DNA from: Escherichia phage HermannAdler_Bas98
Sequence record: PQ850608.1
Strand: one strand, 5' to 3'
Length of the DNA stretch: 64,000 nt
Part shown: in pieces, positions 14,217 to 62,937 of the stretch
Layout: each line of letters opens with the position of its first letter
Numbering within the stretch: position 1 is the first letter of the stretch
Notes under the pieces: generated by a model
The model's input: only the letters and a program-made list of their open reading frames with translations
The model's database searches: none
Told to the model about the DNA's origin: nothing
Translations under genes and position numbers: made by a program

Positions 14217-14222
14217 ATAATT

Positions 14223-14240
14223 GCCGCCGTAACTGGCGGC
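14223..14240 (+). terminator. Short hairpin between sheath-like and tube-like genes
   Basis: GCCGCCGTAACTGGCGGC inverted repeat; no U-tract; possible attenuator. Confidence 0.35.
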
Positions 14241-14263
14241 CATCTCTCTGAGAGGAATCTGTA

Positions 14264-15679: not shown

Positions 15680-15681
15680 AC

Positions 15682-17272: not shown

Positions 17273-17273
17273 A

Positions 17274-17690: not shown

Positions 17691-17693
17691 ACT

Positions 17694-19874
17694 GTGTCTG
17701 ACTCATTAGAAAAATTTGTGCTTCAATATACGGTGGACTTGAAAGAGTCCATCAATCGTCTTGAGCAATTGCAAGATAAGGTTGATCAGACAAACAAAAA
17801 GGCAAAATCCGCTGGCAAAGATTTCTCTGGAGCATTCAAAGATGTTTTTGGCGAGCTAAAGCCGCTTACTGGTGAGCTAGGGTCAATTGACGGAATACTT
17901 GCGCGGCTGACATATCGTTTTGCCGCGCTCGTTCCTGTTGTCGCAGGATTGGCAGTCGTCGTCAAATCCATCGTTGATGTTCGAAAAGAATACGAAGCGC
18001 AAAGAAAGCTTGGTTTTGAAGCCGGACTCTCTCCAATGGGTGTCGAACAACTACAACGACAGTTGAATGAAAGTTCAGGTGGCATCCTTGGCGCACAGGG
18101 GTCGCGAGACTTAATCAGCAAAGCTTCTAATCTGGCATTCAATGCATACACCAACCCCGATGTGATGAACAAGGACAACTTGTTGTTGAACAAGATGGGG
18201 ACAAGTCCTTTCAACAGTAACGGCGGCATCAAAGACACGAATCAGCTGCTTGATGAAATTGGAACAAAGCTGAGAAGTGTGAATGAGCAAACCGCTCGTG
18301 CTATTGGTGCTCTGGCAGGTTTTACCGCCGATGAAGTCCGCGCCCTTCGCGAGCGCAACCAGTCTGTGAAAGAAAGCACACGCATAAGCGATGAGGAAAC
18401 GGCAAAGCTGCAGCGCCAACAAGCTGCTCTTGAGACTATACGAAATAGTATGGGGCAAATTCAAGAAGATTGGCGGCGTATTGAGCTGGTTATCGGTGAA
18501 AACGTCATGCCTGCATTCTCGACGCTTGTCAGCAAAACCGCCGATACAGTCGAAGGATTCCAGATGATGTTCCAAAGAATGTCTGACGGATGGAGCGAAT
18601 TTGTCGACAATTTCATCGCTGACTTGAAACACCCGTTTGATAAACAGGCGGCTGTTAACGAGCGTCACGAGCGTGCCGTTGATAGATGGATCACGCAGAT
18701 GGCCGAAGGCGATGTGAAACGCCAGAGGAACCAGGAGCAAAACGCAGCTGAACAACGTTCTGCGCAAGCACTTTTCACTCGCGATATAAACCTGTTTTCA
18801 AGCGCCGTTTCAACATTTGCTGGCGTCATTGATGAGCGACAAGCATGGGCTGCATGGGCTGGTGAAATAGGACGAAGCGCAGGTCAATCTGCTATGCCTG
18901 GAACACCAGCACTAAGTACTGGCGCGACCGTAGGTAACAACTTGGGATCAGGCAATCCGACCGCTTACGACTCAATCTATGAGGAAGCATCCAAGCGTTA
19001 TGGAATCCCTGTTGCGATGATGAAGGCCGTAACAGAAGTCGAATCTGGATTCAACCCAAATGCCGTAAGCGGAGCAGGTGCGACCGGACTGATGCAAATC
19101 ATGCCTTCCAACTTCAAGGGTCTTGGTATCACAGACGGCAACGACCCTAGACAAAACATTATGGGCGGCGCTCAACTGTTGAAAGAGTATTTAAACGCTG
19201 CCAACGGCGATTGGAATCTTGCGCTGACGATGTATCACGGTGGCTACGACCGCAGCGGCTGGGGCAAGAATACACGCGCTTATCCTGGAAAGGTCATGGC
19301 CGCTCTCGACCGACAATCCAATGGTGAGTATGCCACGGCAGCGCCGCAAGGTGCACCAGTTACTCCAGTACTTAGCGGTAGCGGAGCGGAAGCACCAAAG
19401 GGAAGCTATGCACCAGTACAAGGCCAATCGCGCCAAACGGTGCAATACAGGCAATTGCAAGAAGCCATTGCAGGATACCTGAACGTACCAGTTGAGCAGT
19501 TGATGCAGGGACAAGTCAACAAAGGTGATATTGACTTTGCTCAAACTTACCTTAAGCTTGGAACGCAAAGGGATTATATTAAAAATATGCAGCTGGCTTC
19601 AACTCCAGGTGTAAGACCGAACATTCAAGCCGAAGCGATGAAAAACGCTCGTCTTGCTGCATTCCAACTTGAAGCATTCCAGAAATACGGCGGCGACCTT
19701 TCCGCGAATAGTCGACCTGGTGGGCGTGATATTACTATGGGTCAGAAAAACGTTGTCATCAACGTCAACGGCGCTCAAGACCCACGCAGCACGGCATTCG
19801 AAACGAAACGGGTGCTTGAACAAGATGATATCAACGACATAAACAACCTTACTGCTACACCTTTGAAGTGGTGA
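17694..19874 (+). CDS. Tape-measure-like tail protein with lytic transglycosylase (SLT) domain
   Basis: 726 aa; coiled-coil-rich N-terminal part; C-terminal region has SLT-like signature (EVESGFNPNAVSGAGATGLMQIMPSNF ... TMYHGGYD). Confidence 0.7.
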   Translation: MSDSLEKFVLQYTVDLKESINRLEQLQDKVDQTNKKAKSAGKDFSGAFKDVFGELKPLTGELGSIDGILARLTYRFAALVPVVAGLAVVVKSIVDVRKEYEAQRKLGFEAGLSPMGVEQLQRQLNESSGGILGAQGSRDLISKASNLAFNAYTNPDVMNKDNLLLNKMGTSPFNSNGGIKDTNQLLDEIGTKLRSVNEQTARAIGALAGFTADEVRALRERNQSVKESTRISDEETAKLQRQQAALETIRNSMGQIQEDWRRIELVIGENVMPAFSTLVSKTADTVEGFQMMFQRMSDGWSEFVDNFIADLKHPFDKQAAVNERHERAVDRWITQMAEGDVKRQRNQEQNAAEQRSAQALFTRDINLFSSAVSTFAGVIDERQAWAAWAGEIGRSAGQSAMPGTPALSTGATVGNNLGSGNPTAYDSIYEEASKRYGIPVAMMKAVTEVESGFNPNAVSGAGATGLMQIMPSNFKGLGITDGNDPRQNIMGGAQLLKEYLNAANGDWNLALTMYHGGYDRSGWGKNTRAYPGKVMAALDRQSNGEYATAAPQGAPVTPVLSGSGAEAPKGSYAPVQGQSRQTVQYRQLQEAIAGYLNVPVEQLMQGQVNKGDIDFAQTYLKLGTQRDYIKNMQLASTPGVRPNIQAEAMKNARLAAFQLEAFQKYGGDLSANSRPGGRDITMGQKNVVINVNGAQDPRSTAFETKRVLEQDDINDINNLTATPLKW

Positions 19875-19878
19875 TAAT

Positions 19879-20751
19879 TTGAAAAAGAGAATCCTTAAAG
19901 TCACCTTATCTATGCCGGATGGCACAAGCCAAGTGCTTGATGAAGGATTGATGCTTAGATGCCGAATCAAAAAGGCAGCACTTTCCGTGCAAAATAAGGC
20001 CACAATCGAAGTCGCAGGATTGACAGGGTACTTGAGAGAGTACCTGCTTTCCAACTTCACCGCATTCAACAAACGTCTGCGTGATCAAGGCCAATTGGCG
20101 GCGAATTACGTCAACGTAACAATTGAAGCTGGATATAGAGAAGGCAACGTTGTTAGCAGCAACTTGGTATACAAGGGACAGGTGACGACTGTCGAGATAA
20201 CAGCGCCGCCGCCGAACATCGTCATACGCATCACTTGCTACACCAACCAGATAAACAGGACTAAGTTTATCACTCAAGCTGCACCGTCAAACCCAACCTT
20301 CAAAGAGTTTGTGGAGTGGTCAGCAAAGCAAATGGATATTGATACTGTTATATGCGATACGTCGATTAACAATCAACGTCTTGTGAACCCAGGCCGAACA
20401 ACATATGTTGCAGCAGCCTTGCTGCTTGAGATTCAGAACTATCAAAGGAACTCTATTGCGGCATATATCGATGATGATACGCTCATCGTCAAGGATAAAG
20501 ACAAAATTCTGAATCCAGAACAGATAACGGTGATTGAGGAATTTGTCGGAATACCGATGTGGAACGAGTGGGGCGCTGACTTCACTTGCATGTATAACGC
20601 GGATTTGAAGCTTGCCCAAGGTGTGAAATTCAAATCAGTCTTAAACCCAAGCTTGAACGACACCACATTCGTCATCATGCAACTTGAATATGATTTAGCA
20701 AGTCGTGATGACATATTTACGGTGACGGGCGGCGTTGCACCATCGGCCTAA
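19879..20751 (+). CDS. Hypothetical tail/baseplate protein
   Basis: 290-aa ORF after tape measure; apparent TTG start, start uncertain. Confidence 0.45.
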   Translation: MKKRILKVTLSMPDGTSQVLDEGLMLRCRIKKAALSVQNKATIEVAGLTGYLREYLLSNFTAFNKRLRDQGQLAANYVNVTIEAGYREGNVVSSNLVYKGQVTTVEITAPPPNIVIRITCYTNQINRTKFITQAAPSNPTFKEFVEWSAKQMDIDTVICDTSINNQRLVNPGRTTYVAAALLLEIQNYQRNSIAAYIDDDTLIVKDKDKILNPEQITVIEEFVGIPMWNEWGADFTCMYNADLKLAQGVKFKSVLNPSLNDTTFVIMQLEYDLASRDDIFTVTGGVAPSA

Positions 20752-23335: not shown

Positions 23336-26074
23336 ATGCAAAAGTTTGACACAAACCTGTTGCAAAACCTTAAGTGGATGCAGAACAATGCACCAAACAT
23401 TACATCTTTGGTGCAAAAGAAAAGTGACTGGTATGAAAGATACCAAGATCAGTTTTGGACTGACTGGTACAATAACATTTTTAACATTGACACTTGTGAT
23501 GCAATGGGCATTTATATTTGGTGCGACATTCTTTGCATACCAAGAGACTTTGTGGACTTAAGCAATTATGAGCACAACTGGGCGTTTGGACCGACGCGCG
23601 ACAACTTTGAAGGTGCGGACAACATCGGCGGCAACTTCTTTGGTGCTGGCGGGAAGGTTGTAAAGAATATCGAAGAAGCGCGCATACTTCTTAAGCTTCG
23701 TTATCTGACGCTTACAAGTGATGGTCGCATCGAAAGTATCAACCGCATGCTTAAGTGGATTTTCAACCGTGGAGAGGCTTGGGATTACTCTTCATCACGC
23801 TACGCATACGTGACCGACAACACTCAAGGTGCGGTGTCTTCATCTGAATCAACAAATGGATCATTCCTTCTATACGACTGGCAGGGGTCGACTGAGATTC
23901 AGCACGATTATAAGCAGATACTTTTAAGCCATGGCAACAACGCCGGACTGACTATCAGCGGAGTGTCAGGCACCGTGTCACGGATGGCGCACCCAGATTG
24001 GTACTCATGGGGGAATGGTTCCGGCACAGGTCTTGTCGGCGGCGACACCAGACAGTATGGTGGGCCTGATTACTATGGGCAGTTGTGTGGTGATTACCCA
24101 GGCGAGGCCATAGAGAATTTTGCCAACGCAGTAAGGGTCATCAAGACGGCTTCAAGCGGTGATCCTGTGTATTCTTTGGCCAATAATCCAAGTGCCAAAT
24201 CAATTTCGCTTCCTTCGCAGGCTGGCGTCAACGTTTGCTATAGCTTCTACATAAAGGTGCTTTCTGAAAATGTCGCTTCTGTTTCTGTTACAGAGAATAG
24301 TGATGCATCGAGTAATGGAAAGCTGTTTGACCCCGTCACTGGCCAGTTCAACTTGGACCCGTCATTGAGTTATTTCATCAAAGGCAAATTCGATGGAGTA
24401 AGAAGGGAATCAAACCGTGGTGGCATAAAAGCAATTGGCGGCGATTGGTATCGAATCTGGATTGTAGAGCAGACGGCAACCGCTGCTTCTGGAGTAAGTA
24501 CCAGCTTTTCAATAGAGTTGAAGGCGACTGCCGCTGGATCAACTCAAACTCGTGAATTGCCTGAAGGGTCTGATGCTCTTTTGTTTGGATACTCGATTTG
24601 CGTCTGCGACCCTGTTCAGAATCCAAATGGACCTGAGCCTTATTTTTATGGAACGCAAAACCCTCCTTCTGACGGAACAGCAATCCTGTCTGTAACGGCG
24701 GGAACACTCAATAACATCTCCTGTGCAAACGGACCGCTGACGACAAGAAACGGTGTGGTTGGCGAGTCATTCATGCAACCTGGCTCATCACTTGCATACT
24801 CTGGCTCAATCGGTGGCTACCCGTACCCAGGGAACGCCACGCTGATTGCAGAGACTGATGGAATCAGACGCTCATGGAACGTTAGCAGGCTGGATGGAGT
24901 ACCGCCGCCGCCGACCGCCGACTATTACATGGAATACGTCATCGGACCTTATTTCGCCAACAACCTGTCTGACAACTTTAAGACGCTAGTTGGCGACAGG
25001 AATGAAGGATTCTTGCCAGCAAATGCCGGAATACGTTGGCAGCTTTACCAAGAAGTCGCAGACTTATCTGATATTGATTTGACCGTCAGCAACATAACAG
25101 ACACGCGAGTAGGATTCGAAACGGAAGGTGTCGCATGGATTAACACTGACGGCATCATCAGAGTTGGCGGCATTAACGAGTGGCCGCTGAACAACTTCAA
25201 CGGTGTGATACGCCAGCTTGAATCTTTGAAAGGTGTAAACCAGGTCGTCGACGGCGCACTTGTCAACGACTATTCAATCTCAAAAGCATCAAGAGATGAC
25301 TTTGGTCGTGAAATACCACGCGCGCCAATCACTAACTATTGGCGCTACACACAGCCAAATGACGGTACATCTTTTGGCAATATCATTGAGGATGGCGCAA
25401 ACACTGTCACAGCGACGCCAATCAGCGGTGCGCCCAACCAGTTCCCATCATTCAAGCTTTCCGCTACAATAGGGACTGTGCCAGCATCCGGTTATGCACG
25501 CGCTGTGCTTGCTACTAAATACACTGGCACCCTGACTGGCCCTTTGTCATTTATCGCAATAGTCAAAAACAACACGGTTAACGGTCAAAAACTTTTTGTA
25601 ACTGTACCGGATGGGATGGGTGGCTATATCCCTAAATTCTACAACATAGGCGCAGGTGATTTGCAACGTATCGAAATTGACCTTGCCGCTGAGATTGTTG
25701 AAGGCGCTACCTGGGATGGATCAACAGGCGGCATCAGCATCGGTTTGATATCAGGGAAAGACTTGCCGACCGAAGTTGGTACGACTCTTGAACTTGATAT
25801 TTTAAGCTTGATGCTTGTGTCTGGTAGTACGATGAATGCGCTTGCAATTTCAACAAGCGAAGATTTTGCAAAGAAAACTGCGACTTCTATATACATCAAA
25901 AACCCAGGATCACTTGCCACTGGAGTTCAATTGATTGCTTCTAATGGTGATGTTGTAGCAACAGTAAACTTTCCGAGAAGTGCTGCTGGTGGTTATGTTT
26001 CAAGCATGAACATAACTGACTTAACTGGTGATTGGGCATCAACCCTTTTATCAAAAATTAAATACATCGTGTAG
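23336..26074 (+). CDS. Tail fibre protein (large)
   Basis: 912 aa, Gly/Ser/Thr/Asn-rich, downstream of baseplate genes. Confidence 0.55.
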   Translation: MQKFDTNLLQNLKWMQNNAPNITSLVQKKSDWYERYQDQFWTDWYNNIFNIDTCDAMGIYIWCDILCIPRDFVDLSNYEHNWAFGPTRDNFEGADNIGGNFFGAGGKVVKNIEEARILLKLRYLTLTSDGRIESINRMLKWIFNRGEAWDYSSSRYAYVTDNTQGAVSSSESTNGSFLLYDWQGSTEIQHDYKQILLSHGNNAGLTISGVSGTVSRMAHPDWYSWGNGSGTGLVGGDTRQYGGPDYYGQLCGDYPGEAIENFANAVRVIKTASSGDPVYSLANNPSAKSISLPSQAGVNVCYSFYIKVLSENVASVSVTENSDASSNGKLFDPVTGQFNLDPSLSYFIKGKFDGVRRESNRGGIKAIGGDWYRIWIVEQTATAASGVSTSFSIELKATAAGSTQTRELPEGSDALLFGYSICVCDPVQNPNGPEPYFYGTQNPPSDGTAILSVTAGTLNNISCANGPLTTRNGVVGESFMQPGSSLAYSGSIGGYPYPGNATLIAETDGIRRSWNVSRLDGVPPPPTADYYMEYVIGPYFANNLSDNFKTLVGDRNEGFLPANAGIRWQLYQEVADLSDIDLTVSNITDTRVGFETEGVAWINTDGIIRVGGINEWPLNNFNGVIRQLESLKGVNQVVDGALVNDYSISKASRDDFGREIPRAPITNYWRYTQPNDGTSFGNIIEDGANTVTATPISGAPNQFPSFKLSATIGTVPASGYARAVLATKYTGTLTGPLSFIAIVKNNTVNGQKLFVTVPDGMGGYIPKFYNIGAGDLQRIEIDLAAEIVEGATWDGSTGGISIGLISGKDLPTEVGTTLELDILSLMLVSGSTMNALAISTSEDFAKKTATSIYIKNPGSLATGVQLIASNGDVVATVNFPRSAAGGYVSSMNITDLTGDWASTLLSKIKYIV

Positions 26075-26084
26075 AGGAACGGCA

Positions 26085-28776: not shown

Positions 28777-29319
28777 TCAACGCACATCCTGTGTCTTAAC
28801 ATTACCTGAAGCATCTCTTAATGGCAGTGGATAGTAGGCCATTTGGTAGTCTGATACGCCTTCAACATGATAAAACACGATTACGTCTTTGCTGTTGATG
28901 AGCATGTTAACGACATCTGATTTATCTTCTGGAGTGAGTATGAGTGCGCCGCCTGTCCTGCTGTCTACTGCAACAGGGTATGTCTTATCGACAAGGCCGC
29001 TGTCCAATGTATTATACCTGACAACGATTTCAGGGGCATCAACTTTTGCAATTGACATTCCGAACACAAACGACACGACTTGGCGACCGCGATCATTCAT
29101 TACGCACATCTTTTCCTTGTCAAACCTTTCCTTTATCACATCGTATTTATTCCAGCAAAATTCGAACGATTGGCCGTTGTTAAAATATCTCGTTAACACT
29201 TTGGCATTACTATTTGGCGGCGTAAACATACTTTCAGCCGCTGCACTTTTGGTGAAGAACAAAACTGTCAGCATAGCCATGATGATGATCAAAACAATCT
29301 TTAAGTTTTTCGATTTCAT
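28777..29319 (-). CDS. Secreted / periplasmic protein with signal peptide
   Basis: N-terminus MKSKNLKIVLIIIMAMLTVLFFTKSAAAES is a classic signal peptide; 180 aa. Confidence 0.5.
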   Translation of the reverse strand: MKSKNLKIVLIIIMAMLTVLFFTKSAAAESMFTPPNSNAKVLTRYFNNGQSFEFCWNKYDVIKERFDKEKMCVMNDRGRQVVSFVFGMSIAKVDAPEIVVRYNTLDSGLVDKTYPVAVDSRTGGALILTPEDKSDVVNMLINSKDVIVFYHVEGVSDYQMAYYPLPLRDASGNVKTQDVR

Positions 29320-29396
29320 TATAATTCACCTTTTGATTACGAATATTAATAGTATAGGCCGAAGGTTTTGAAAGTAAATAAGGCGAAAGGTAAATA

Positions 29397-29424
29397 AAAG
29401 AAAAGCCGGAGATTTCCGGCTTTA
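29397..29424 (-). terminator. Rho-independent terminator for minus-strand operon
   Basis: AGCCGGAGATTTCCGGCT hairpin with T-run on minus strand (A-run on plus). Confidence 0.6.
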
Positions 29425-29495
29425 TGTATACACTGTATATTAAATTCTATAAAACGACGCGATAGATTATCCGCACCAATTACTTATCTAGTGTC

Positions 29496-30470
29496 TTAAA
29501 AATACTCCATATCGGTAATATCACGGAAGCATTTATACAAAGCAGAGCGCGGCACGTCGACGATGCCAAAGTTAAAGAATTTATACGTTAGGTATTTATC
29601 GCGATAGTTCTCGCGATTCTCCCAAAGCATTTTACGCTCTGCCATAGGCATTGAACCAGCGGAGACGCGGAAAGGAATCATTTCACCTTTCTCATCCACA
29701 TATTTTGGATTGACGACTACGAATGAGCCAAGGTATCCTTTCGCAACTAAACCTTCAGCCTCTTTTGAACGCTTGGTGCGACCCAATTCGTCAATGAATG
29801 CTTCGTTGTTGTTCTCCATCATCTCAACGAAGTCTATGATCAACCCTTCTTCATCGGTCCACGGCTTGTCCTTCCACACATCACGTGACTTCGGCGTCGC
29901 GCGGCCATGCTTATATTTGCCCGTCCAAGACTTGCCATACAAGCCTTCATAGCCAAGCTGGTCTGCTTCGATTTGCATTGCCGCGTACTGGTCCATATTT
30001 TCGATGTTGCGATATTCGAGAGCGCGAAGGAATGGACGTCGGCCATGGTCAATGAGATGTTGATTGACCTCAGCAACACGTCGATTGTACTTCTCATAAC
30101 GGGCCGAGAATGGCAAATCAGGTTCGCTAAAGTCATCAAACACCCACCATGTAAAGTTAGTGATTGCATCAGTGTTCATGCATGCAGTATAGGCCTGTTG
30201 CATGACGTTCTTGTCATTTGGATTGCCGTCGATTAGCTCTCCATCAAGTCCGTGAATTAATTCACCCAAGAAGAGGAACTCTTTTTTGATTTGAATGTTG
30301 CGCAGCGCCATGCCGGACGTGCCCATTGGCAAGTTGTCATACGCCATTGCGCGTATGCCATCGACCTTGAATGACAATCCGCAAGGCAGCGGCACGTCTT
30401 CGCCGCGCTCGATTATTTGCTTACGCTGGCAACCCTTCATTGGTTTTAATGCTTTGATTTCTCCTGCCAT
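29496..30470 (-). CDS. ATP-dependent DNA ligase
   Basis: Adenylation motif I KVDGIR (FKVDGIRAMAY); start at ATG behind RBS AAGGAG; about 324 aa. Confidence 0.8.
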   Translation of the reverse strand: MAGEIKALKPMKGCQRKQIIERGEDVPLPCGLSFKVDGIRAMAYDNLPMGTSGMALRNIQIKKEFLFLGELIHGLDGELIDGNPNDKNVMQQAYTACMNTDAITNFTWWVFDDFSEPDLPFSARYEKYNRRVAEVNQHLIDHGRRPFLRALEYRNIENMDQYAAMQIEADQLGYEGLYGKSWTGKYKHGRATPKSRDVWKDKPWTDEEGLIIDFVEMMENNNEAFIDELGRTKRSKEAEGLVAKGYLGSFVVVNPKYVDEKGEMIPFRVSAGSMPMAERKMLWENRENYRDKYLTYKFFNFGIVDVPRSALYKCFRDITDMEYF

Positions 30471-42787: not shown

Positions 42788-43783
42788 TTATTTATTAGCA
42801 ATATAAGCAAATTTTTGATAGTTATTTGCTTTGATGAGTTTTTCAACTTCAGCAAGGTCATGAGCGACGTCATCAAGCAAAATGTTTCGCCAAGTAGCGA
42901 ATCGACCGACACTAAATACGTTCAAATCCATGGTCAGTTGCAGGAGTAGAGCGTGTCGCAAGTCTTTCGGAATGTCGACAATCTTGCCATACTTCTGGTC
43001 GACCTTTTCAACTTCTTCGAGAGCGATGTCACTCCATGATAGGCCAAAGGCTGTCAATACTTCGTCAACTTCTGCACGCAACTTAATGTCACGGTAACGA
43101 GTAATGCCGCCAGCGGCTTCAACTGCGGCTTCACTTACGCTAACCAAAGGAATTGTTTCGATGATCAGCGTGTCACCAGTGATTGATGCGCGGTAAGTTC
43201 TGACGGAGTAGTCAGGGAAGTAAATTGTCTGATACAACTCACACTTACGTTTAATCTTAAAGCGGTAAACACGAATGTTTGCTTTATCAAATGAAAAATC
43301 AAGCTTTTGATCAATCCCAGCCAGCTTCATCATAACTGGCAGCGGCGACGTGTTGATGATTGGCGTCTCGCTATAGCCGCAAAGAGTATCAACAGGAGTA
43401 TTAAAGAATATGCGGTCGCCCAGTTTGTCGACAAGCTGATCATAAAAGTCATCAGGCGCAATATAACGCGTTGCAGTTTTAAGCTTCATGATTGAACGGC
43501 TGCCAAACTGATTGGTGACCTTCATGGAATACATATTGGCAAGGTTGATTGGACAATGGTCGTGGTAGTAGTTGCCGCGAAAATACACAGCCTTGTCAAC
43601 TGTCACGGCCTTAAAAGGGATTCCGGTAATACGGCTTACTTCTTCGCCGCGAAAGCGTAGCAGTGCCTTGTGCTGTGGCGCTCGCTCCCCTGCTTCGTAC
43701 ACAATAGAGTTCGGGAAGTGACACGCGGTGATAAGTCCTGCCAAACCGCCGCCGATAATCATTACAGGTTGTTTCATGTTCAT
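42788..43783 (-). CDS. FAD/NAD(P)-binding oxidoreductase
   Basis: Dinucleotide-binding GxGxxG at N-terminus (MIIGGGLAGL) followed by acidic residue pattern; 331 aa. Confidence 0.6.
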   Translation of the reverse strand: MNMKQPVMIIGGGLAGLITACHFPNSIVYEAGERAPQHKALLRFRGEEVSRITGIPFKAVTVDKAVYFRGNYYHDHCPINLANMYSMKVTNQFGSRSIMKLKTATRYIAPDDFYDQLVDKLGDRIFFNTPVDTLCGYSETPIINTSPLPVMMKLAGIDQKLDFSFDKANIRVYRFKIKRKCELYQTIYFPDYSVRTYRASITGDTLIIETIPLVSVSEAAVEAAGGITRYRDIKLRAEVDEVLTAFGLSWSDIALEEVEKVDQKYGKIVDIPKDLRHALLLQLTMDLNVFSVGRFATWRNILLDDVAHDLAEVEKLIKANNYQKFAYIANK

Positions 43784-43863
43784 TTGTCCTTTGTGGGTGA
43801 TATGAGAAGTATAATAGCTAAATTATTTTACAGCAACAAGTCATTTCTATTTAGTACAGACGA

Positions 43864-43890
43864 AAAAAGACCCACAACAAGTGTGGGTCA
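43864..43890 (-). terminator. Rho-independent terminator (minus strand)
   Basis: GACCCACAACAAGTGTGGGTC hairpin, T-run on minus strand (AAAAAA on plus). Confidence 0.6.
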
Positions 43891-43917
43891 ATTACCGCTA
43901 TATAACCGTCCTACAGG

Positions 43918-44763
43918 TTATTCCGCTTGATCACCGTCTTCGGCATCGTCGTTGGATTCAACATCGACAAACTCGATGTGGCCCATCTCTTCCAGCTTGC
44001 TCAGGTAGGAGCGAACGGAAGCGCCAAACAGCTGATCTTTAACTTTCTCGCCCAGCTCATCGATAGACTGCGCCACGCCAACTTCGCCTTCTTTGATCGC
44101 CGCCAGAACGCGCCCACGGGTGGAGTGCTCCTGCGGCTGGCTCAGGCCGTTGCCAGTGTAGATGAAGTGAGTAGCTTTTGCACGGCGCTGACCGTTTGCC
44201 TTTTTGGCAGCCTTGCGCTCTGCGATGGCTTTGCGACGTTCTTCAGCTTCTTTCTTACGCTGTTCTTTTTGCTGTTCTGCAGCTTCTTTCGCCGCGATCT
44301 TAGCAGCTTCACGCTCTGCCTTGCGTTTCGCTTTCGCTTCTTCTTTAGCCTTCTCTTTTTCGGCCTTTGCTGCAGCACGGGCTTGATCACGCTCTGCTTT
44401 CTTAGCAGCAGCTTGTTCAGCTTTCAGGCGCTTGGCTTCTTCTTTGGCCTTTGCCTTTTCGATTTCTTTTGCTGCTTTAGCGGCTTCACGCTCTGCTTTC
44501 TTAGCAGCAGCCTTTTCTGCACGCTCTTTAGCTTTCTTAGCTGCTTCTTCAGCACGCTTCTGAGCCTTCTCATCAGCAGCCTGTTTGCGCTTCAGCGCGG
44601 CTTCTTCACGCTTGGCTTGTTTTTCCTGCTCACGCTTCTGGCGTTTTTCTTCGGCTTCTTTCTTTTTAGCCAGGCGTTTTTCTTCAGCCACGCGACGACG
44701 TTCTGCTGCGGCTGCTTGTTTTTCTTCTTTAGATAATACTTTGATTGCTTCGGCCATATTCAC
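43918..44763 (-). CDS. Lys/Glu/Ala-rich repeat protein with globular C-terminal domain
   Basis: About 200 aa of KEA-rich low-complexity helix-like repeats (AEEKRLAKKKEAEEKRQK...), then an ordered domain with acidic tail; underlying DNA has tandem repeats. Confidence 0.55.
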   Translation of the reverse strand: MNMAEAIKVLSKEEKQAAAAERRRVAEEKRLAKKKEAEEKRQKREQEKQAKREEAALKRKQAADEKAQKRAEEAAKKAKERAEKAAAKKAEREAAKAAKEIEKAKAKEEAKRLKAEQAAAKKAERDQARAAAKAEKEKAKEEAKAKRKAEREAAKIAAKEAAEQQKEQRKKEAEERRKAIAERKAAKKANGQRRAKATHFIYTGNGLSQPQEHSTRGRVLAAIKEGEVGVAQSIDELGEKVKDQLFGASVRSYLSKLEEMGHIEFVDVESNDDAEDGDQAE

Positions 44764-44916
44764 AGTCCTTAAATAAATTAGTTTATTTTATATTCCCCGT
44801 TTGGGATAACTTAATTATGCCTTCAGTCGCCGCCAGTAGCAACTAAAAACTATGGCGGCAATGCCACTTTAATTAAACTGATTTTCAGTTTTATTTTTCG
44901 TAAATTTACGTCAACA

Positions 44917-46101
44917 TTAACGCGCTTTCAAATCACGGTACACGGTCAGATTCTTCTTAGCACGGGTGATAGCGGTGTACATCATCTTGGAGTACGGAAC
45001 GCCGCGCAGGATTTCTTCCAGCACGCACACATTGTCCCACTCGCTGCCTTGCGATTTGTGCACCGTGATGACATAGCCATAGTCCATGCCTCCAACAGCG
45101 CGTTGCGCTTCTTTGCGCACTTCCTGATCAGTAGAGAAGGAAAGAGGATTGATCTTCACCTTTATATCTTTACCATCAGTTAATGAACGTAAGTTGACAT
45201 ACATTATTTCATTCGACTCATCTTCATCCCTTTCGAAGTCCGGCACTGGCTCATAGCTAATAACAATCCCTTGCTCGCCATTACAGAATCCTGGCCCGTG
45301 TTGGTTGAAGGTGCAAATAACCTTCTCACCGATTCCTGGCATTGGCGTTATACGTCCGCTCACTTGCCGTAATAATGAATTCCATTTATCTTTTGTGCTA
45401 TTATAGGAGCAAATAATTTGATCATCTTCGCCCATGAATTTCTTCAATGCAGTAACGCGCGGCGATTCTGCCAATACTTTGACGTCATCGTATTCACGCG
45501 GAGGAAGGCGGTTGCCTTGGCGCACGAAGAAGGAGGCGCGGATTATATTGGACTCTTTCCCTTGCCGCATGATTTCTGTTAACAGTACGTCAACGGCATC
45601 TTCAGTAAAGTAGGCGGCGGCTTTTACCGGAGGGACTTGTCCAATGTCGCCTAATGCCAGGACAGGGATGCGGTGATCAAGAAGGCGCTCTGTGTCCCAC
45701 TCGCCAACCATCGACGCTTCATCGAGTACAACAAGATGCGGCCTTTCATCCAGCTTTGACTTTCTCGAAAAGATTGGCTCATTGTCGTCATTTACGCCGC
45801 GCACGTTATAGATGAACTGGTGAAGGGTCTTAGCGCCACGACAGCCTTTTTGCTTTAATCGGCTTGCAGCCTTTCCGGTCGGCGCAATATAGATAGCTCC
45901 ATACTCACCGACACAACGGCGCACAATCTCGCGAGCAATAGAGGTTTTACCAGTCCCTGCATAGCCAGCAATGAAAAACACGCGCTTCGTCGTTTTACCG
46001 TCCTGCAATCGCTTGTACCATGCAACGGCTTTCTCGATGGCGTCGATTTGTTGCGCGTTAAACTGAATCACTGGCTCATCATTAAATTCTGGAATGTTCA
46101 T
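44917..46101 (-). CDS. RecD/Dda-like superfamily 1 DNA helicase
   Basis: Walker A GYAGTGKTS, Walker B VVLDEASMV, C-terminal TVHKSQGSEWD motif. Confidence 0.8.
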   Translation of the reverse strand: MNIPEFNDEPVIQFNAQQIDAIEKAVAWYKRLQDGKTTKRVFFIAGYAGTGKTSIAREIVRRCVGEYGAIYIAPTGKAASRLKQKGCRGAKTLHQFIYNVRGVNDDNEPIFSRKSKLDERPHLVVLDEASMVGEWDTERLLDHRIPVLALGDIGQVPPVKAAAYFTEDAVDVLLTEIMRQGKESNIIRASFFVRQGNRLPPREYDDVKVLAESPRVTALKKFMGEDDQIICSYNSTKDKWNSLLRQVSGRITPMPGIGEKVICTFNQHGPGFCNGEQGIVISYEPVPDFERDEDESNEIMYVNLRSLTDGKDIKVKINPLSFSTDQEVRKEAQRAVGGMDYGYVITVHKSQGSEWDNVCVLEEILRGVPYSKMMYTAITRAKKNLTVYRDLKAR

Positions 46102-58899: not shown

Positions 58900-59170
58900 G
58901 CGAAGGCAGTCATTCATACGTATCATGACGTATCATTGGGCTATTGATTTATAAGGAAAAATACGCTGATACGGATGATACGGGTGCAAACATAATATAT
59001 ATAGAATTCCAGAAAATTAATTAACTCCATTTTGAATTAATTTAAATTAATTTTTTTCTACATCCTCATACTTATACTAAACTTATATTCATACGTATCA
59101 TCCGTAAGATATAAGTAAAAACAAGGACTTGCGGCAATACGGATGATACGTCATGATACGCTTCGACCAG
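58900..59170. repeat. Iteron array flanking AT-rich spacer (copy B of a duplicated element)
   Basis: ACGTATCATGACGTATCAT, GATACGGATGATACG, CAATACGGATGATACGTCATGATACG around AT-rich core (AATTAATTAACTCCATTTTGAATTAATTTAAATTAATTTTTTT); collinear with 6580-6870. Confidence 0.7.
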
Positions 59171-59364
59171 CCAGCAGCGGCTAAGTCATTGATTTGCATA
59201 GCAAGCGGCGAAAGGGATGGATTTCTTTTATACGTATCAAACAGTACACCACGCACCACGGTCCGCAATCCTATTTGCAATATGATTTGTGTACGTTTAT
59301 AGCCATAATGAACATCAATCTGCACTTGAATATAATGTCCATCCATTGTATAATTCACACTATT

Positions 59365-60575
59365 AATTTGCACTATGGGATTTTGCACTATGAGTCAAGA
59401 TTATGTAGCGATGCCTGAAGACTTTGAAGACCCGCGATTCGCAGAGCACAATCAGGCTTTATTCGATGAGTTCATTGACCTTGTTATTCAGGGTCATGAC
59501 ATGCGCGCAGCTTTTGCACTAGTATTTGGAATGGAAGTTGCAACGGATAACTACACTGGCCAGCGAATCCTTTGCACGCAACGCAATCCATACTACAAGA
59601 TGCGCTTCAAAAAGCGTATGGAAGAGATGCCACTCAAGGATTTGTGGAGCGTAAAAGGTGCAATTCACAATTTGGTCAAGCTTGTGCGTGATCCAGAAGT
59701 CGCGGCGTCAGCCAAGCTTAATGCTATTCGTGAACTGAATATCATCTACGGCATCACGATGATTGATGAAAACGGCAATAGTAAAATGGGCCGTTCTATG
59801 GACGATTTCTACAAGGATTTTGGAGAGGCTGCCAAAGAAGGAGAGCAATTCTCCCGCCACTAGCCAATTTGCACTATAAAACGGCCCTAGAACACATGTT
59901 CTCCACTTCTAGGGCCATCGGTAATACGACGGGGAAGGTCGCACCCATAAACGCGTTAGAAAGTGTATTATTATAAGTCATCTTTTAGTCGCTTTACGTA
60001 ACAATTTACGACCTTCAACCGTCCAATCGAACGACTCCACCAGCAGATTCGCACTATAACCTAAGACGATGCGCCCTTTCTCGTTATCGACCCGCCAACA
60101 AGTCTCGAATAGCATTCGATTTGCACTATTAACTATTGCCGCAACGCGCGTAGGGTAAGCGCAATTTGCACTATGGTCGTAAAGGGATAAGGTGCGACCA
60201 CTTCCGATGGACAATGTAGCGATGAGAATAAGCGTATTCATAAGCCACCAATTTGCACTATGAAAAGCGACCCCGAAGGGCCGCCATTCGATTAGATAAT
60301 CTGGAAGGTGTAGGACTTGTTGCCGAACTCGAAGTTCAAGCGTCCAGCTTCTTTAAGCTTCATGCGGAAGCGAATGTGCTTGCTATCCGGTAATCCCAGC
60401 GCGGCGAAGGCTACGCGGACCGATTTGAACTCGCCTACACCCTCGACCATAACGCCGTTACGGGTGAGACGCTTTTGCGCCACTTCCTTATTATCCCAAC
60501 TTTTTGCAATACCTTCGCTATTCGAACGGCGATGGGAAGGAGTTCCATTTTGCACTACGCAATTTGCACTATCGT
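59365..60575 (+). repeat. Dispersed cluster of 11-bp motif ATTTGCACTAT (at least 8 copies, same orientation)
   Basis: Copies read near 59365, 59381, 59867, 60046 (ATTCGCACTAT variant), 60120, 60166, 60251, 60547 and 60559; several lie inside predicted minus-strand ORFs. Confidence 0.6.
59390..59863 (+). CDS. Hypothetical protein
   Basis: 157 aa from Met6 of track ORF; start codon overlaps an ATTTGCACTAT motif copy. Confidence 0.45.
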   Translation: MSQDYVAMPEDFEDPRFAEHNQALFDEFIDLVIQGHDMRAAFALVFGMEVATDNYTGQRILCTQRNPYYKMRFKKRMEEMPLKDLWSVKGAIHNLVKLVRDPEVAASAKLNAIRELNIIYGITMIDENGNSKMGRSMDDFYKDFGEAAKEGEQFSRH

Positions 60576-60918
60576 TTAAGCCGCTCTTAACGAAGGCTTC
60601 ATACTCTTCATCGCTCATCGCGTCGAGTTCTTCCTGGGTCGGCTCAGCCTTTTTAACGACCGCACGCGCCTTATGCGTTTTTACATCACTGGACACTTCC
60701 TCACGCGGCTTCGCGTCGGGAATGGGCGATTCGTTGGACGGCTCATCGAGCGCGTTTAAGGACTCGATTAACGCGATTACGCGAGTCTCGGCGGTCCGGC
60801 GGTCCGCAAATTTCTTAATCGGCTTCGAACCGGAATTTGCATTATAAAATGCAACGAGGTCGGCGGTCTTAGTTGCGATAACGTCGCCGCTAGTAGAAAA
60901 GCGATTTAAGCTAACCAT
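60292..60918 (-). CDS. Hypothetical protein
   Basis: 208-aa ORF in CpG-rich terminal segment; contains two motif copies on the opposite strand. Confidence 0.4.
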   Translation of the reverse strand: MVSLNRFSTSGDVIATKTADLVAFYNANSGSKPIKKFADRRTAETRVIALIESLNALDEPSNESPIPDAKPREEVSSDVKTHKARAVVKKAEPTQEELDAMSDEEYEAFVKSGLNDSANCVVQNGTPSHRRSNSEGIAKSWDNKEVAQKRLTRNGVMVEGVGEFKSVRVAFAALGLPDSKHIRFRMKLKEAGRLNFEFGNKSYTFQII

Positions 60919-60998
60919 AATAAACTCCTATTTGTTAGGGCGCTAGGCGCGAAAGAATTTTATTAAAGCGCCGCGCACGACGCTCTAAAAATCCTCTC

Positions 60999-61313
60999 TT
61001 ACTCTTCGTCGTCTTCGATTAATTCGAGGGCGAAGGCGTAAGCTTTGCTATCGTAATTAACTAAAACGGCGAGTTCGAACTCGTTAATAAACGCCGTTTT
61101 ACCGCATAAATTTAATTCCGCATCGACTTCGAAGAATCCGTTTTCGTCGCGCTCTAAGCGAGAAGCAGCGAGTTGCTCGATTACCGTCGCGTCGTTAATT
61201 TCTTCGCCTAAGCGAACGCCGGAGAATTTCGCGAGAATTTCGCCGTAAGTAAGCGTAACGCCCTGGACTTCGGCGGCGGCGTTTTCGAGGGTAAAGCGGG
61301 TAACGATAGCCAT
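60999..61313 (-). CDS. Small acidic hypothetical protein
   Basis: 104 aa, acidic with C-terminal EDDEE; good coding character. Confidence 0.45.
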   Translation of the reverse strand: MAIVTRFTLENAAAEVQGVTLTYGEILAKFSGVRLGEEINDATVIEQLAASRLERDENGFFEVDAELNLCGKTAFINEFELAVLVNYDSKAYAFALELIEDDEE

Positions 61314-61537
61314 AATAAACTCCTAGTTGGGAGAGGCGTTAACGACCTATTCGTTAACTCATCCCGTCCCGATATGAGTACATTATAATATAGTGTAGAA
61401 AAAAGTAAAGCACTTTTTCGATAAAAATGCGATAAATTATTTTATCTTTTTTCTTTACTTCTTCGTACACTCGCGTATACTTGTTTATATCGAGACGGGC
61501 GATGGCCCTTTCTTCTACTAGCATCGGGAGCTTTATT

Positions 61538-61840
61538 ATGACTACTTTAATCTCTTCCATCCTTACTTACGACGAAGACCGCTTAACCGTTCGCTCTCTT
61601 ATCGCCGCCGTTAACGCGGAACTAGAATCTAGCGCCATTAAGGTCCGCGCGGTCGCCTTCATCGGCCTTTCCTTCGACGATATGAAGTATGCCGAACGTA
61701 GCGCCATCCGCTTCGCGAAGACCGACGACGAAGCCGTTACCCTTATCGAGACGGTTACGCCGCGCGGCGAAGCGTTAATTATCGTCGAGTATATCGACGT
61801 AGAAGGCGATAAATCTTATAAACATTTTATCGCAGAATAA
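61538..61840 (+). CDS. Small acidic hypothetical protein
   Basis: About 100 aa from Met20 of track ORF; preceded by shared promoter-like element. Confidence 0.4.
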   Translation: MTTLISSILTYDEDRLTVRSLIAAVNAELESSAIKVRAVAFIGLSFDDMKYAERSAIRFAKTDDEAVTLIETVTPRGEALIIVEYIDVEGDKSYKHFIAE

Positions 61841-61852
61841 CGAAAAAAGTGC

Positions 61853-61881
61853 TTTACTTCTTCGTACACTAAGACTATAAT
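61853..61881 (+). promoter_or_regulatory. Sigma70-like promoter TTTACT-N17-TATAAT containing shared element CTTTACTTCTTCGTACACT
   Basis: -35 TTTACT 61853-61858, -10 TATAAT 61876-61881; the 19-nt element also occurs at 61452-61470 upstream of 61538 gene. Confidence 0.5.
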
Positions 61882-61948
61882 GTTTTATATCGAGAGGGGA
61901 TGAGGTAGCGAATAGGTCACTACCCTCCCGACTAACTAGGAGAATATT

Positions 61949-62239
61949 ATGATTACTTTAGCCGCTATCCGTTCCGCTCGCGTCGAAACTTCCGAAAACT
62001 CTAACGTATTTGGCGAAAAACTTAAAAACGTTTATCTCTTTAACGTAGATGCGACTATCGAGGAGCTTCACAGTCCTATCGATTTTAGCGAATTTACGGA
62101 ACTCGAAGAGGAAGATATTTCTACCTTCCGCGTTACTATCGAAGGCAAGGTTTATTTTGCTACGGAGTTCGGCGGCGAATATCTCGCGGTATCCGAAGGC
62201 GAAGGCCGTTACTCTTTCTTTAAAATCGTTTCCTTATAA
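61949..62239 (+). CDS. Small acidic hypothetical protein
   Basis: 96 aa, Glu-rich; RBS AGGAG before ATG; followed by terminator. Confidence 0.45.
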   Translation: MITLAAIRSARVETSENSNVFGEKLKNVYLFNVDATIEELHSPIDFSEFTELEEEDISTFRVTIEGKVYFATEFGGEYLAVSEGEGRYSFFKIVSL

Positions 62240-62257
62240 TACCCTTCCGTTACTAAT

Positions 62258-62286
62258 AGGCCGCGCTTAGTCGCGGCTTTTCTTCG
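62258..62286 (+). terminator. Rho-independent terminator
   Basis: GGCCGCGCTTAGTCGCGGC hairpin then TTTTCTT. Confidence 0.6.
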
Positions 62287-62937
62287 TCCCTATCTCGATG
62301 CGCTCCTACGCGAAAACTCCTTTATCCTTCCCTTCGTCGTCGCATAATCTTCTTCGAGATGCGTCTTAGTTCGCATAACAGGTATTACGTTAAATGGAGA
62401 ACATCGCGTAAGTCCTTGTTTTATATAGACACCTATATCGGACCGTTAGGGCGGGTCGCGTAAGTCGTTGTTTTATAAAGGCACAAAACTTTCCCTTCGT
62501 TCCGAACTAAAACGAGAAATATGCCGACCCTTCGCCCGAAAATAGTACGTATGCGAAATTACATTCATCTCGAATAATCCCTCCCGATATTATCCTACAC
62601 GCAATCATTCGCTTTCGAATCATTATGCTTCATATTATTATGCGTCGAATCATTCGCTTTCGAATTGTAACGCTGGAAACTGTAACGTCGATTGATTATT
62701 GCGTTCGTGTGGTTTTTATGGCATGGGTCTTTTGGTGCGTTTTGCTACTTGATGGAATTTGCGGTACACTAATCAAAATACGACACATTTGGTCCACTAA
62801 CTTTTCAAAGAAAAAGTCCTAGACAGTACCGTACTATTTTGTACCCACAGGAAATTTGCAGTACACTCCTGAGCGGCAGGCAAAATAAAGGGCCGCACTA
62901 AGCGACCCACGATTCACGGTTAAATCAGCAACACCCA

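Follow-up and report, generated by a model that had tools for sequence, protein, structure and literature searches.

Why roughly 2 kb near one end of a phage genome should differ so sharply in composition from the remainder, and what the genes within it might do, are the questions raised by positions 60290-62600 of the window, the whole 64,000-nt stretch analyzed here from Escherichia phage HermannAdler_Bas98 (PQ850608.1). The window is the genome of a Wifcevirus (an E. coli myovirus) and shares 90 to 98% identity with other Wifcevirus genomes. A first-pass annotation made from the sequence had described the segment as a CpG-rich genome end encoding small acidic proteins from sigma70-like promoters. 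It regarded these proteins as candidate anti-restriction or anti-defense DNA mimics or host-takeover factors and took the composition to suggest a separate evolutionary origin.

Position and composition of the segment

Alignment of the window to both ends of the WFC record and to the annotated repeat of Mansfield placed the segment inside a direct terminal repeat (Table 1), in agreement with its supposed position at a genome end. The repeat is present in the window assembly as a single collapsed copy, and its right end is either 62733, the Mansfield/PhageTerm boundary, or 62813, the limit of the exact 3,784-bp repeat of WFC. The putative early-gene block (the block) forms its right-hand half. 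The left part harbors an array of 10 copies of ATTTGCACTAT, with one further copy elsewhere in the window (chance expectation, 1.7), and arrays of TT(T/C)GCACTA were identified as its counterpart in the related phages Kyle and PA1. The array is a candidate packaging or injection-stop element; no DnaA boxes were found.

Table 1. Features of the terminal repeat, in window coordinates
Feature	Position	Strand	Basis or remark
Direct terminal repeat, ~3.8 kb	59029..62813	.	Window aligned with both WFC record ends and Mansfield's annotated repeat
Array of ATTTGCACTAT, 10 same-strand copies, left part of repeat	59273..60845	+	Motif count
Small terminase subunit (TerS) gene	59375..59863	+	Mansfield annotation; phrog_4783
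Terminator-like hairpin then T run, end of leftward operon	60267..60284	-	Read from sequence; WFC terminator annotated at matching place
Basic 208-aa protein, pI 8.9	60292..60918	-	ORF; PHROG match (phrog_4730)
CA/TG-poor, CG- and TA-rich core	60600..62600	.	Dinucleotide o/e
Acidic 104-aa orphan protein, pI 4.07, charge -15	60999..61313	-	ORF; swappable cassette position
Predicted leftward early promoter (TTTACT, 16 nt, TATAAT), for 104-aa and 208-aa genes	61382..61409	-	Sequence
Predicted rightward early promoter P1 (TTTACT, 16 nt, TATACT), for 100-aa gene	61454..61481	+	Sequence
Acidic 100-aa orphan protein, pI 4.65, charge -7	61538..61840	+	ORF
Predicted rightward early promoter P2 (TTTACT, 17 nt, TATAAT), for 96-aa gene	61853..61881	+	Sequence
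Acidic 96-aa orphan protein, pI 4.40, charge -10	61949..62239	+	ORF
Terminator-like hairpin, end of rightward genes	62258..62279	+	Terminator annotated in WFC and Mansfield
Non-coding tail, CA/TG-poor	62290..62600	.	Holds 29-nt direct repeat (62404-62432 and 62456-62484) and inverted repeats

Sliding-window statistics confirmed the CpG richness, with observed/expected (o/e) values of 1.67 to 2.19 in 1-kb windows across 60001-62500 compared with 0.87 to 1.50 elsewhere in the window. The trinucleotides singled out by eye were also in excess (TCG/CGA, ACG/CGT, and CGC/GCG at 2.6, 1.5, and 1.8 times their genome frequency, respectively). The primary signal behind this richness is a depletion of CA/TG, whose place is taken by CG and TA. 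In the core, CA/TG o/e was 0.32, compared with 1.19 ± 0.058 across 2-kb windows from the rest of the genome (minimum, 1.05); the corresponding values were 2.09 and 1.10 ± 0.086 for CG and 1.19 and 0.66 ± 0.074 for TA, with G+C content unchanged at 0.46. To the left of the core lies a graded CA/TG-poor shoulder (~59900 to 60600), and the right-most repeat DNA (62600-62813, the last ~130 to 210 bp) has a normal CA/TG content. Both coding and non-coding DNA of the block are affected, and CA and TG are each depleted on the coding strand at every codon position. The most depleted trinucleotides are CAG/CTG, CAA/TTG, and TCA/TGA, and the block contains fewer distinct 5-mers and 6-mers than every background window. 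Unrelated viral contigs totaling 0.97 Mb contained no 1-kb window with a CA/TG o/e below 0.64, and no published description of a 2-kb CA/TG purge was found in the literature searched.

Selection on dinucleotides in three genera

When block proteins were re-encoded with the phage's own codon usage, the simulated CA+TG counts were 39, 37, and 30, compared with 7, 9, and 7 observed; none of 2,000 simulations matched the observed values. The TerS gene, an internal control within the same repeat, had a normal CA/TG content (76 CA+TG observed versus 68 simulated). CA/TG is avoided through unusual synonymous codons, with CG or TA used instead, and through a scarcity of His, Gln, Cys, Trp, and Met, which together make up 3.0% of residues in block proteins versus 10.5% in the remainder of the genome. 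For leucine, TTA, CTC, and CTT are used in place of TTG and CTG. Polymorphism bears the same mark: the ratio of transitions to transversions at CG/TA positions was 40:36 in the core and 118:40 in the flanks (Fisher P = 0.001), and 33% of core single-nucleotide polymorphisms (SNPs) included a CA/TG allele, compared with 52% in the flanks (P = 0.0006).

A CA/TG-poor block was identified at the same place in relatives infecting Pantoea (Kylevirus) and Serratia or Erwinia (Myosmarvirus), with almost no nucleotide similarity there (no more than ~80 bp to the window). It spans 1500-3300 in Kyle, is also present in PA1, and spans 1550-3350 in Serratia phage MTx (o/e 0.11 to 0.30), where it ends ~170 bp short of the end of the PhageTerm repeat; in Erwinia phage TropicalSun the o/e was 0.12 to 0.36. 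The ranking of depleted trinucleotides is identical in the blocks of the window, Kyle, and PA1. The block was absent from the one Pbunavirus and one Xanthomonas relative examined and from metagenomic relatives harboring a homologue of the 208-aa block protein. Selection at the DNA level is thus ongoing and maintains the CA/TG-poor state in three genera infecting Enterobacterales, the codon simulations and SNP spectra being the grounds for invoking selection rather than a foreign origin.

These observations bear on the separate evolutionary origin proposed at first pass, which did not hold up. A foreign origin, or a local mutation or repair bias with no selection acting on dinucleotides, would fit the sharp contrast with the rest of the genome and the orphan status of the three small proteins, and single transitions do convert CA/TG to CG or TA. 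However, the trait is held syntenically in three genera that retain so little nucleotide similarity, the signal fades gradually inside one conserved gene (that of the 208-aa protein), SNP transitions that recreate CA/TG are under-represented, and an independently swapped cassette gene carries the same bias. A horizontally acquired island, which the deviating composition might suggest, was likewise rejected, as all 28 or more Wifcevirus records contain the block and two other genera have one at the corresponding position, with no integrase, tRNA, or mobility gene flanking it.

Promoters and products of the putative early genes

A 19-nt element said to be shared by the promoters was recovered: CTTTACTTCTTCGTACACT occurs exactly at 61453 and 61852 on the plus strand and with three mismatches at 61392-61410 on the minus strand, with none in shuffled sequences. 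Every copy supplies a TTTACT -35 box lying 16 to 17 nt from TATAAT or TATACT, giving three putative promoters of the form CTTTACT-N16/17-TATAAT that, on sequence evidence, agree with the sigma70-like assignment and point outward from 61380-61480. An alignment of six promoter copies from two genera revealed a common CTTTACT, TATAAT, and TATCG start region. The genes are therefore predicted to be transcribed by the host RNA polymerase in its unmodified form, using strong sigma70-type promoters that are conserved in the two genera.

Three of the four block proteins are the small acidic proteins of about 100 aa described earlier, with net charges of -15, -7, and -10 and pI values from 4.07 to 4.65; the fourth, which the earlier description had not separated out, is basic and 208 aa long. 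It is the only block protein conserved beyond the genus (831 representative clusters), with homologues in Kyle (48%), MTx (38%), and Pbunavirus and Xanthomonas phages, and had no match in Pfam or the PDB. The 100-aa protein is genus restricted, being present in 28 of 28 Wifcevirus records at 84 to 100% identity and nowhere else. For the 104-aa protein only four protein clusters were found, with Kyle gp6 weakly similar, and in Bas99, Mansfield, and ECML-117 the position of its gene is taken by a different acidic gene, of 94 aa, that cannot be aligned with it. The 96-aa gene exists in two allelic forms that are 65% identical. The small block genes, as this swap and these alleles attest, evolve fast.

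The acidic proteins did not match any Pfam, PHROG, or PDB family at permissive thresholds, including known DNA mimics (Ocr and ArdA). AlphaFold returned a poor, unusable model of the 104-aa protein (pLDDT 45), and of five models of the 96-aa protein a single one, which is beta-rich, reached moderate quality (pLDDT 71.6); the sole structural neighbor of this model among PDB and viral structures was its own orthologue. The strong negative net charge fits DNA mimics but is not specific to them, and comparisons against sequence and structure families tied none of the block proteins to any function. Of the first-pass description, the location at a genome end, the sigma70-type promoters, the small acidic proteins, and the proposal of an early or host-takeover module were supported.

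Restriction and candidate explanations for the purge

Wifceviruses withstand restriction of types I, II, and III, resisting all systems tested, including EcoRI, EcoRV, EcoKI, and EcoCFT_II, save EcoP1_I; the protection mechanism is not known, and the published phenotypes indicate an anti-restriction function in these phages (PMC11990801). The Bas99 genome contains 19 EcoRI, 4 EcoRV, 5 EcoKI, 92 EcoCFT_II, and 89 EcoP1I sites, with the EcoCFT_II site deduced to be CACAG from exact counts in two genomes. Within the terminal repeats of Bas99, Bas100, Bas101, and the window, there were no EcoRI or EcoRV sites, zero to one EcoKI site, and zero to one CACAG (5.1 expected), whereas the EcoP1I site, AGACC, occurred five to seven times, on both strands. 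Site counts in the repeat therefore correlate with phenotype, AGACC being present and its enzyme effective, and the other four sites being absent or single and their systems resisted. The zero counts for EcoRI and EcoRV are not significant alone (1.05 and ~0.2 expected). Bas99 and Bas101 each carry one EcoKI site in the block, a single site being harmless only because type I enzymes require a pair (PMC10644984).

The block contained 283 distinct REBASE sites, compared with a minimum of 319 over 114 background windows, and its 6-bp palindromes were at 0.57 of expectation versus 0.81 genome-wide. Nevertheless, GA/TC, AG/CT, and CC/GG rank above CA/TG among the dinucleotides required most by type II sites, and the MTx block retains four EcoRI sites; generic restriction avoidance alone thus does not explain the choice of CA/TG.

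The explanation we favor, and which we consider to have about an even chance of being correct, is that the segment is a T5-like pre-early (immediate-early) module, in which the first-exposed DNA is poor in targets and its products then protect the genome. The last-packaged right end would most likely be the first to enter, and with that order of entry no more than ~200 bp would separate the CA/TG-poor block from the entering end. By analogy with phage T5, block DNA would be in the cell first and unprotected longest, so that it would be kept poor in sequences recognized by DNA-targeting host systems, and at least one block product may then shield the remaining genome against restriction.

In T5-like phages, restriction operates only via sites that lie in first-step-transfer DNA, within the terminal repeat (PMC10644984; bioRxiv 10.1101/866236), with EcoP1I departing from this rule in Tequintaviruses (PMC10644984). 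Like the block, the first-step-transfer region of T5 and other Tequintaviruses carries early genes with host promoters inside a long direct terminal repeat, with a repeat-rich element separating those genes from the inner boundary of the repeat. Both groups are also broadly insensitive to restriction; that only sites in the region count is, for wifceviruses, a site-count correlation, and EcoP1I is effective against wifceviruses but not Tequintaviruses. Both DNAs have a dinucleotide signature unlike the genome remainder, that of T5 being CG/GC-rich and AG/GA-poor and that of the block being CA/TG-free. The T5 region is larger (~9 kb and 17 genes, compared with 2 kb and 4 genes), and neither Pfam nor PHROG gave a match to A1, A2, or Dmp in the block. 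T5 is a siphovirus characterized by two-step DNA entry with a pause at an injection stop signal, whereas Wifcevirus is a myovirus, related to Pbunavirus, whose staged entry is hypothetical.

Phage T7 expresses the DNA mimic gene 0.3/Ocr first, from its leading end. In the block, too, host promoters at the entering end would yield a small acidic protein before other products, and exposed leading DNA, which matters for restriction in T7, would do so here as well. The block proteins lack sequence similarity to Ocr (a family held in Pfam), as well as structural similarity in the one usable model; the acidic ones are less charged than Ocr, and the terminal repeat is far longer than that of T7. In Bacillus phage SPO1, the host-takeover module consists of small early genes with strong host-type promoters in the terminal redundancy, an arrangement shared with the block in a different host; we know of no dinucleotide purge there. 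Vertebrate viruses avoid CpG, which is sensed by the protein ZAP, and there, too, one dinucleotide is removed by synonymous choice, but the block is CpG enriched, is DNA rather than RNA, and covers only 2 kb of the genome.

More tentatively, as a possibility that we rate well short of probable, the purge could be a "stealth code," by which Enterobacterales phages keep the first-exposed 2 kb CA/TG-free since a conserved and as yet unrecognized activity reads short CA/TG words (CAG/CTG and TTGA/TCAA) on incoming DNA. Such an activity could be the host's or the phage's own; to our knowledge, no bacterial CA/TG sensor has been described.

An unlikely alternative is self-immunity, in which an early phage-induced nuclease would cut host DNA at short CA/TG sites before the remaining phage DNA has come in, so that only the first-entered block need lack them. 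The same logic has been proposed for T5 A1 and first-step DNA (bioRxiv 10.1101/866236), and how T5 DNA escapes A1 is still an open question (bioRxiv 10.64898/2026.04.02.716235). Purging of the same element in Escherichia, Pantoea, Serratia, and Erwinia phages is more readily explained by a single conserved agent than by restriction enzymes that differ between strains. However, no nuclease or phosphoesterase domain was identified in any of the four block proteins, the literature searched contained no account of these phages breaking down host DNA, and the normal CA/TG content of the genome remainder would require a strict two-step transfer.

Somewhat less credible is the idea that the purge hides the DNA from a conserved DNA-binding factor of the host instead of from nucleases; -35-like TTGACA or IHF/FNR-type TCAA/TTGA, for instance, would be avoided so that only three designed promoters serve heavily transcribed early DNA. 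TCAA/TTGA is absent from 5 kb of pooled blocks (~80 expected at background frequency), CAA/TTG and CAG/CTG are the most depleted trinucleotides, and the block's own promoters carry TTTACT, not TTGACA. Yet TA-rich words resembling a -10 box are enriched, the repeat shows no shortage of promoter-like matches (12 versus 6.4 expected), and MTx retains four TCAA; moreover, the purge is lacking in related phages of Pseudomonas and Xanthomonas, hosts whose sigma70 and IHF are no different.

We regard it as highly unlikely that virion DNA is modified at a CA/TG-containing motif that blocks restriction, with the early block lacking the motif because it must stay unmodified, either so that host RNA polymerase can use it or so that modification-dependent nucleases leave it alone. 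The breadth of the resistance and its unknown mechanism (PMC11990801) would suit this explanation, and the site of the effective enzyme, EcoP1I (AGACC), is free of CA/TG while CACAG and the GTGC half of the EcoKI site contain it. EcoRI and EcoRV sites also lack CA/TG, yet 19 and 4 of them, respectively, are not restricted. Genes for DNA modification were not detected (the thymidylate synthase is of the ThyX type, with a PNKP-type phosphatase and an SDR as its neighbors), and the BASEL authors likewise found none (PMC11990801). Foreign origin or mutational bias, on the evidence given above, is largely refuted and retains very little probability.

What sets the block apart is that CA/TG is held at a tenth to a third of expectation over 2 kb, against mutation pressure, in three genera. 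The T5-like reading makes the wifcevirus restriction puzzle testable, as it proposes that only sites in the terminal-repeat block count, and it puts forward the four small block genes as candidates for the broad anti-restriction function. It also links to the old question of how first-step-transfer DNA survives in T5, that DNA being odd in composition as well. Because wifceviruses and the related Pbunavirus phages are candidate agents for therapy and biocontrol, identifying the 2 kb that govern sensitivity to host defenses helps in choosing and engineering phages. If CA/TG words are indeed read on incoming DNA, a myovirus lineage would have staged genome delivery of the T5 kind, together with a new anti-restriction function.

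Removal of CA/TG from the block

The first-pass annotation had described 60290-62600 as a CpG-rich segment, and this was borne out: in 1-kb windows across 60001-62500 the observed/expected ratio (o/e) of CpG was 1.67 to 2.19, against 0.87 to 1.50 everywhere else. G+C content was unchanged, and it was the pyrimidine-purine steps that differed. In the core at 60600-62600 (here called the block), CA/TG o/e was 0.32, CG o/e was 2.09, and TA o/e was 1.19, compared with 1.19 ± 0.058, 1.10 ± 0.086, and 0.66 ± 0.074, respectively, in 2-kb windows from the rest of the window. As a single transition turns any CA/TG into CG or TA, the CpG richness is a by-product of CA/TG removal. CA and TG were both depleted on the coding strand and at all three codon positions, and the depletion was equal in the promoter region and the 300-bp noncoding tail. 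Leftward, the bias declines gradually across the 208-aa gene; its other limit, near 62600, is sharper. Across 0.97 Mb of unrelated viral contigs, CA/TG o/e was never below 0.64 in any 1-kb window.

Using simulations in which the same proteins were re-encoded with the codon usage of this phage (n = 2,000), it was found that the three small genes of the block would carry 39, 37, and 30 CA+TG; only 7, 9, and 7 were observed, values reached in none of the simulations, and the small-terminase gene, 1 kb away, had a normal number. Among leucine codons in the block, TTA, CTC, and CTT replace TTG and CTG, while residues whose codons necessarily contain CA or TG (His, Gln, Cys, Trp, and Met) make up 3.0% of the total versus 10.5% elsewhere in the genome. 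Elsewhere in the window, GpC o/e rises to 1.6 to 1.95 over a stretch of unannotated minus-strand genes unrelated to the block, and strong negative AT skew (-0.23) was also recorded (see the table).

The flagged region and its surroundings share 90 to 98% identity with Escherichia and Shigella Wifcevirus phages (WFC, WFH, ECML-117, Mansfield, and Bas99 to Bas101). An equivalently placed CA/TG-poor block within the same architecture was identified in Pantoea phages Kyle and PA1 (Kylevirus), whose nucleotide similarity to the window is confined to approximately 80 bp, as well as in Serratia phage MTx (Myosmarvirus; block CA/TG o/e, 0.11 to 0.30) and Erwinia phage TropicalSun (0.12 to 0.36). The MTx block ends approximately 170 bp short of the PhageTerm-defined end of its repeat. 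Homologs of the 208-aa protein without the CA/TG purge were found in a Pbunavirus (at the same distance from the record start), a Xanthomonas phage, and metagenomic relatives. Trinucleotide depletion followed one ranking in the blocks of the window, Kyle, and PA1, with CAG/CTG, CAA/TTG, and TCA/TGA the most depleted and ATG/CAT the least; TCAG and CCAG were likewise among the most depleted tetranucleotides of the MTx block. Pooled blocks totaling 5 kb contained no TCAA/TTGA, against approximately 80 occurrences expected at background frequency.

To examine single-nucleotide polymorphisms (SNPs), the core was compared with its flanks in seven Wifcevirus genomes. At CG/TA positions the ratio of transitions to transversions was 40:36 in the core versus 118:40 in the flanks (P = 0.001), with transitions that recreate CA/TG underrepresented in the core, and a CA/TG allele was present in 33% of core SNPs versus 52% of flanking SNPs (P = 0.0006). 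A 94-aa gene that occupies the 104-aa position in other isolates has the same CA/TG bias. Taken together, the cross-genus conservation, the SNP spectrum, and this biased replacement gene show that selection acts on the DNA of the block in place. The separate evolutionary origin first proposed from the composition was rejected because the block is conserved in three genera, its bias is graded within the 208-aa gene, and the SNP spectrum speaks against such an origin.

Terminal repeat and predicted transcriptional layout

Wifcevirus phages are myoviruses of approximately 68 kb with a direct terminal repeat of approximately 3.7 kb (PMC6563267). The repeat was placed by alignment of the window to the two ends of the WFC record, an exact repeat of 3,784 bp, and to the Mansfield repeat as defined by PhageTerm. 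It is present in the window as one collapsed copy, and 60290-62600 is therefore its right-hand two thirds. An Rfam search of the repeat gave no match.

Features of the terminal repeat and of other regions of the window
Feature	Coordinates	Strand	Remark
Predicted TTTACT-N16-TATACT promoter	29351-29378	-	outside the repeat
180-aa ORF	28777-29319	-	behind the preceding promoter
Mild CA/TG dip (0.79-0.83) with CpG peak (1.6)	29100-29900		beside the same promoter
High GpC	43500-45000	-	strand of the genes
Negative AT skew	44001-46000
Terminal repeat	59029-62733/62813		alignment to WFC and Mansfield
ATTTGCACTAT cluster	59273-60845	+
Small-terminase gene	59375-59863		within the repeat
CCACCAGC(A/T)	~60033		one copy, adjoining an ATTCGCACTAT copy
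Hairpin terminator	60267-60284		leftward genes
208-aa protein	60295-60918	-
104-aa gene	60999-61313	-
Predicted leftward promoter	~61380-61480	-	drives the 104-aa and 208-aa genes
Two predicted rightward promoters		+	one for the 100-aa gene, one for the 96-aa gene
100-aa gene	61538-61840	+
96-aa gene	61949-62239	+
Terminator	62258-62279		rightward genes
Noncoding tail	62337-62648
29-nt direct repeat in the tail	62404-62432, 62456-62484

The small-terminase gene lies in the left part of the repeat, and hence in two copies per virion genome, together with ten copies of ATTTGCACTAT, all on the same strand. These lie around and downstream of the gene, two of them overlapping its start codon region, with only one near-copy elsewhere in the window. 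Arrays of TT(T/C)GCACTA occupy the equivalent place in Kyle (L004, 580-1476) and PA1 (L005, approximately 4720-5900). Possible roles for the ATTTGCACTAT array are recognition by terminase (a pac element) and stopping of injection. Another short motif, CCACCAGC(A/T), has three to six copies in the left repeat part of Kyle, PA1, and MTx (L132).

The promoters of the block had been said to share a 19-nt element, and two exact copies were recovered on the plus strand and one with three mismatches on the minus strand, with none in shuffled sequence. CTTTACT, a spacer of 16 to 17 nt, TATAAT or TATACT, and a TATCG start region are common to all three promoters in the window and three of Kyle. The -35 form presumably resembles that of T4 early promoters, which we regard as a lead. 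A scan of viral contigs with the promoter pattern returned mostly chance hits but pointed to MTx. A fourth predicted promoter of this form lies outside the repeat (see the table). The noncoding tail contains, besides the direct repeat, three inverted-repeat pairs, with no Rfam matches; the Mansfield annotation places a 39-aa minus-strand ORF in this region.

Proteins encoded in the block

The small acidic proteins predicted from the sequence were confirmed, at 104, 100, and 96 aa, with pI values of 4.07 to 4.65 and net charges of -15, -7, and -10; the fourth protein of the block, of 208 aa, is basic. None of the three had a sequence match in Pfam, PHROG, or PDB, and they are either restricted to the genus or weakly related to a Kyle counterpart. 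Paralogy among them was unsupported by BLASTP and profile comparison. Two of the three positions evolve fast. The 104-aa position is a variable cassette at which Bas99, Mansfield, and ECML-117 carry an unalignable acidic 94-aa gene (pI 4.05; 25791-26075 in Bas99 contig L023). Similarly, the 96-aa position has two alleles, 65% identical, in which the N-terminal 38 residues are conserved. The AlphaFold model of the 104-aa protein was useless (pLDDT, 45), while one of five models of the 96-aa protein was moderate (71.6, beta-rich) and had no structural neighbor in PDB and a viral library except its own ortholog. A DNA-mimic role for these proteins is neither favored nor disfavored by these results.

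The 208-aa protein belongs to phrog_4730, a large phage family with 831 representative clusters, and had no Pfam matches, including when its domains were separated. Both the single sequence and a profile of the family gave, for residues ~7 to 95, a weak, nonsignificant match (E = 0.18 to 0.23) to the N-terminal, RNA polymerase-binding domain of NusA. The C-terminal part gives the impression of a possible helix-turn-helix of the homing endonuclease type.

Restriction sites, the T5 precedent, and candidate agents of the purge

The closest precedent for how the block most likely works is phage T5. Its terminal repeat places pre-early genes on the first-entering DNA, type I and II systems restrict tequintaviruses only when this DNA carries active sites, and the rest of the T5 genome is shielded by an unidentified pre-early function (PMC10644984; bioRxiv 10.1101/866236). 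Like the block, T5 first-step DNA was computed here to have a dinucleotide signature of its own. Between 1-9100 and 10300-20000 of T5 (L021), o/e changes from 1.34 to 0.74 for CG, 1.58 to 1.09 for GC, 0.79 to 1.11 for AG/CT, and 0.76 to 0.98 for GA/TC; GCGC is approximately 8 times denser in the first-step-transfer DNA, and the change falls at the annotated injection stop signal. In the present phage, the right repeat end, with the CA/TG-poor block, would enter the cell first, given the usual last-in, first-out rule and a block that abuts the right repeat boundary. The vB_Eco4M-7 synthesis paper does not mention genome ends (PMC11074155).

Wifcevirus phages withstood every restriction system tested but one: they are strongly sensitive to EcoP1_I, an exception that the authors call notable given that its sites are about as numerous as those of EcoCFT_II (PMC11990801). 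The site of this type III system as used in the BASEL tables is CACAG, which gives exactly the 92 sites of Bas99 and 51 of Bas01; no other candidate 5-mer that matched the Bas99 count also matched that of Bas01. Sites were counted in the repeats of the window phage, Bas99, Bas100, and Bas101, with expectations from genome density. CACAG occurred zero to one time (expected, 5.1), EcoRI and EcoRV sites were absent (expected, 1.05 and approximately 0.2; not significant alone), EcoKI sites numbered zero to one, and AGACC (EcoP1I) occurred five to seven times on both strands (expected, 4.9). These counts match what a T5-like rule would predict, the match being a correlation.

Phages of four host genera share this purge, which Pseudomonas and Xanthomonas relatives lack, and the pattern suggests a single conserved agent linked either to Enterobacterales or to this branch of phages. 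A nuclease of the phage itself, a host DNA-binding factor, and virion DNA modification are each candidates for this agent, with some support and clear objections. Generic restriction-site avoidance does not suffice as a full explanation: no other 2-kb window has so few distinct restriction sites as the block, but type II sites require other dinucleotides more often than CA/TG, and the MTx block keeps four EcoRI sites. Avoidance of 6-bp palindromes, though stronger in the block than elsewhere in the genome, does not explain the choice of dinucleotide. No GATC occurred in the blocks of the window, Kyle, and PA1 (expected, 17.5), but GATC avoidance was rejected as a fixed rule, as other Wifcevirus isolates have one to three copies. 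Thymidine hypermodification, suspected because an annotated thymidylate synthase adjoins a kinase-like gene, had nothing in its favor, as the enzyme is ThyX-type and its neighbor a PNKP-type phosphatase.

The block is best read as a terminal-repeat pre-early module, for which an early or antidefense role is plausible. Such modules are known; what is unusual here, with no relevant earlier description of CA/TG depletion in phages found in the papers searched, is the conserved, selected removal of one dinucleotide.
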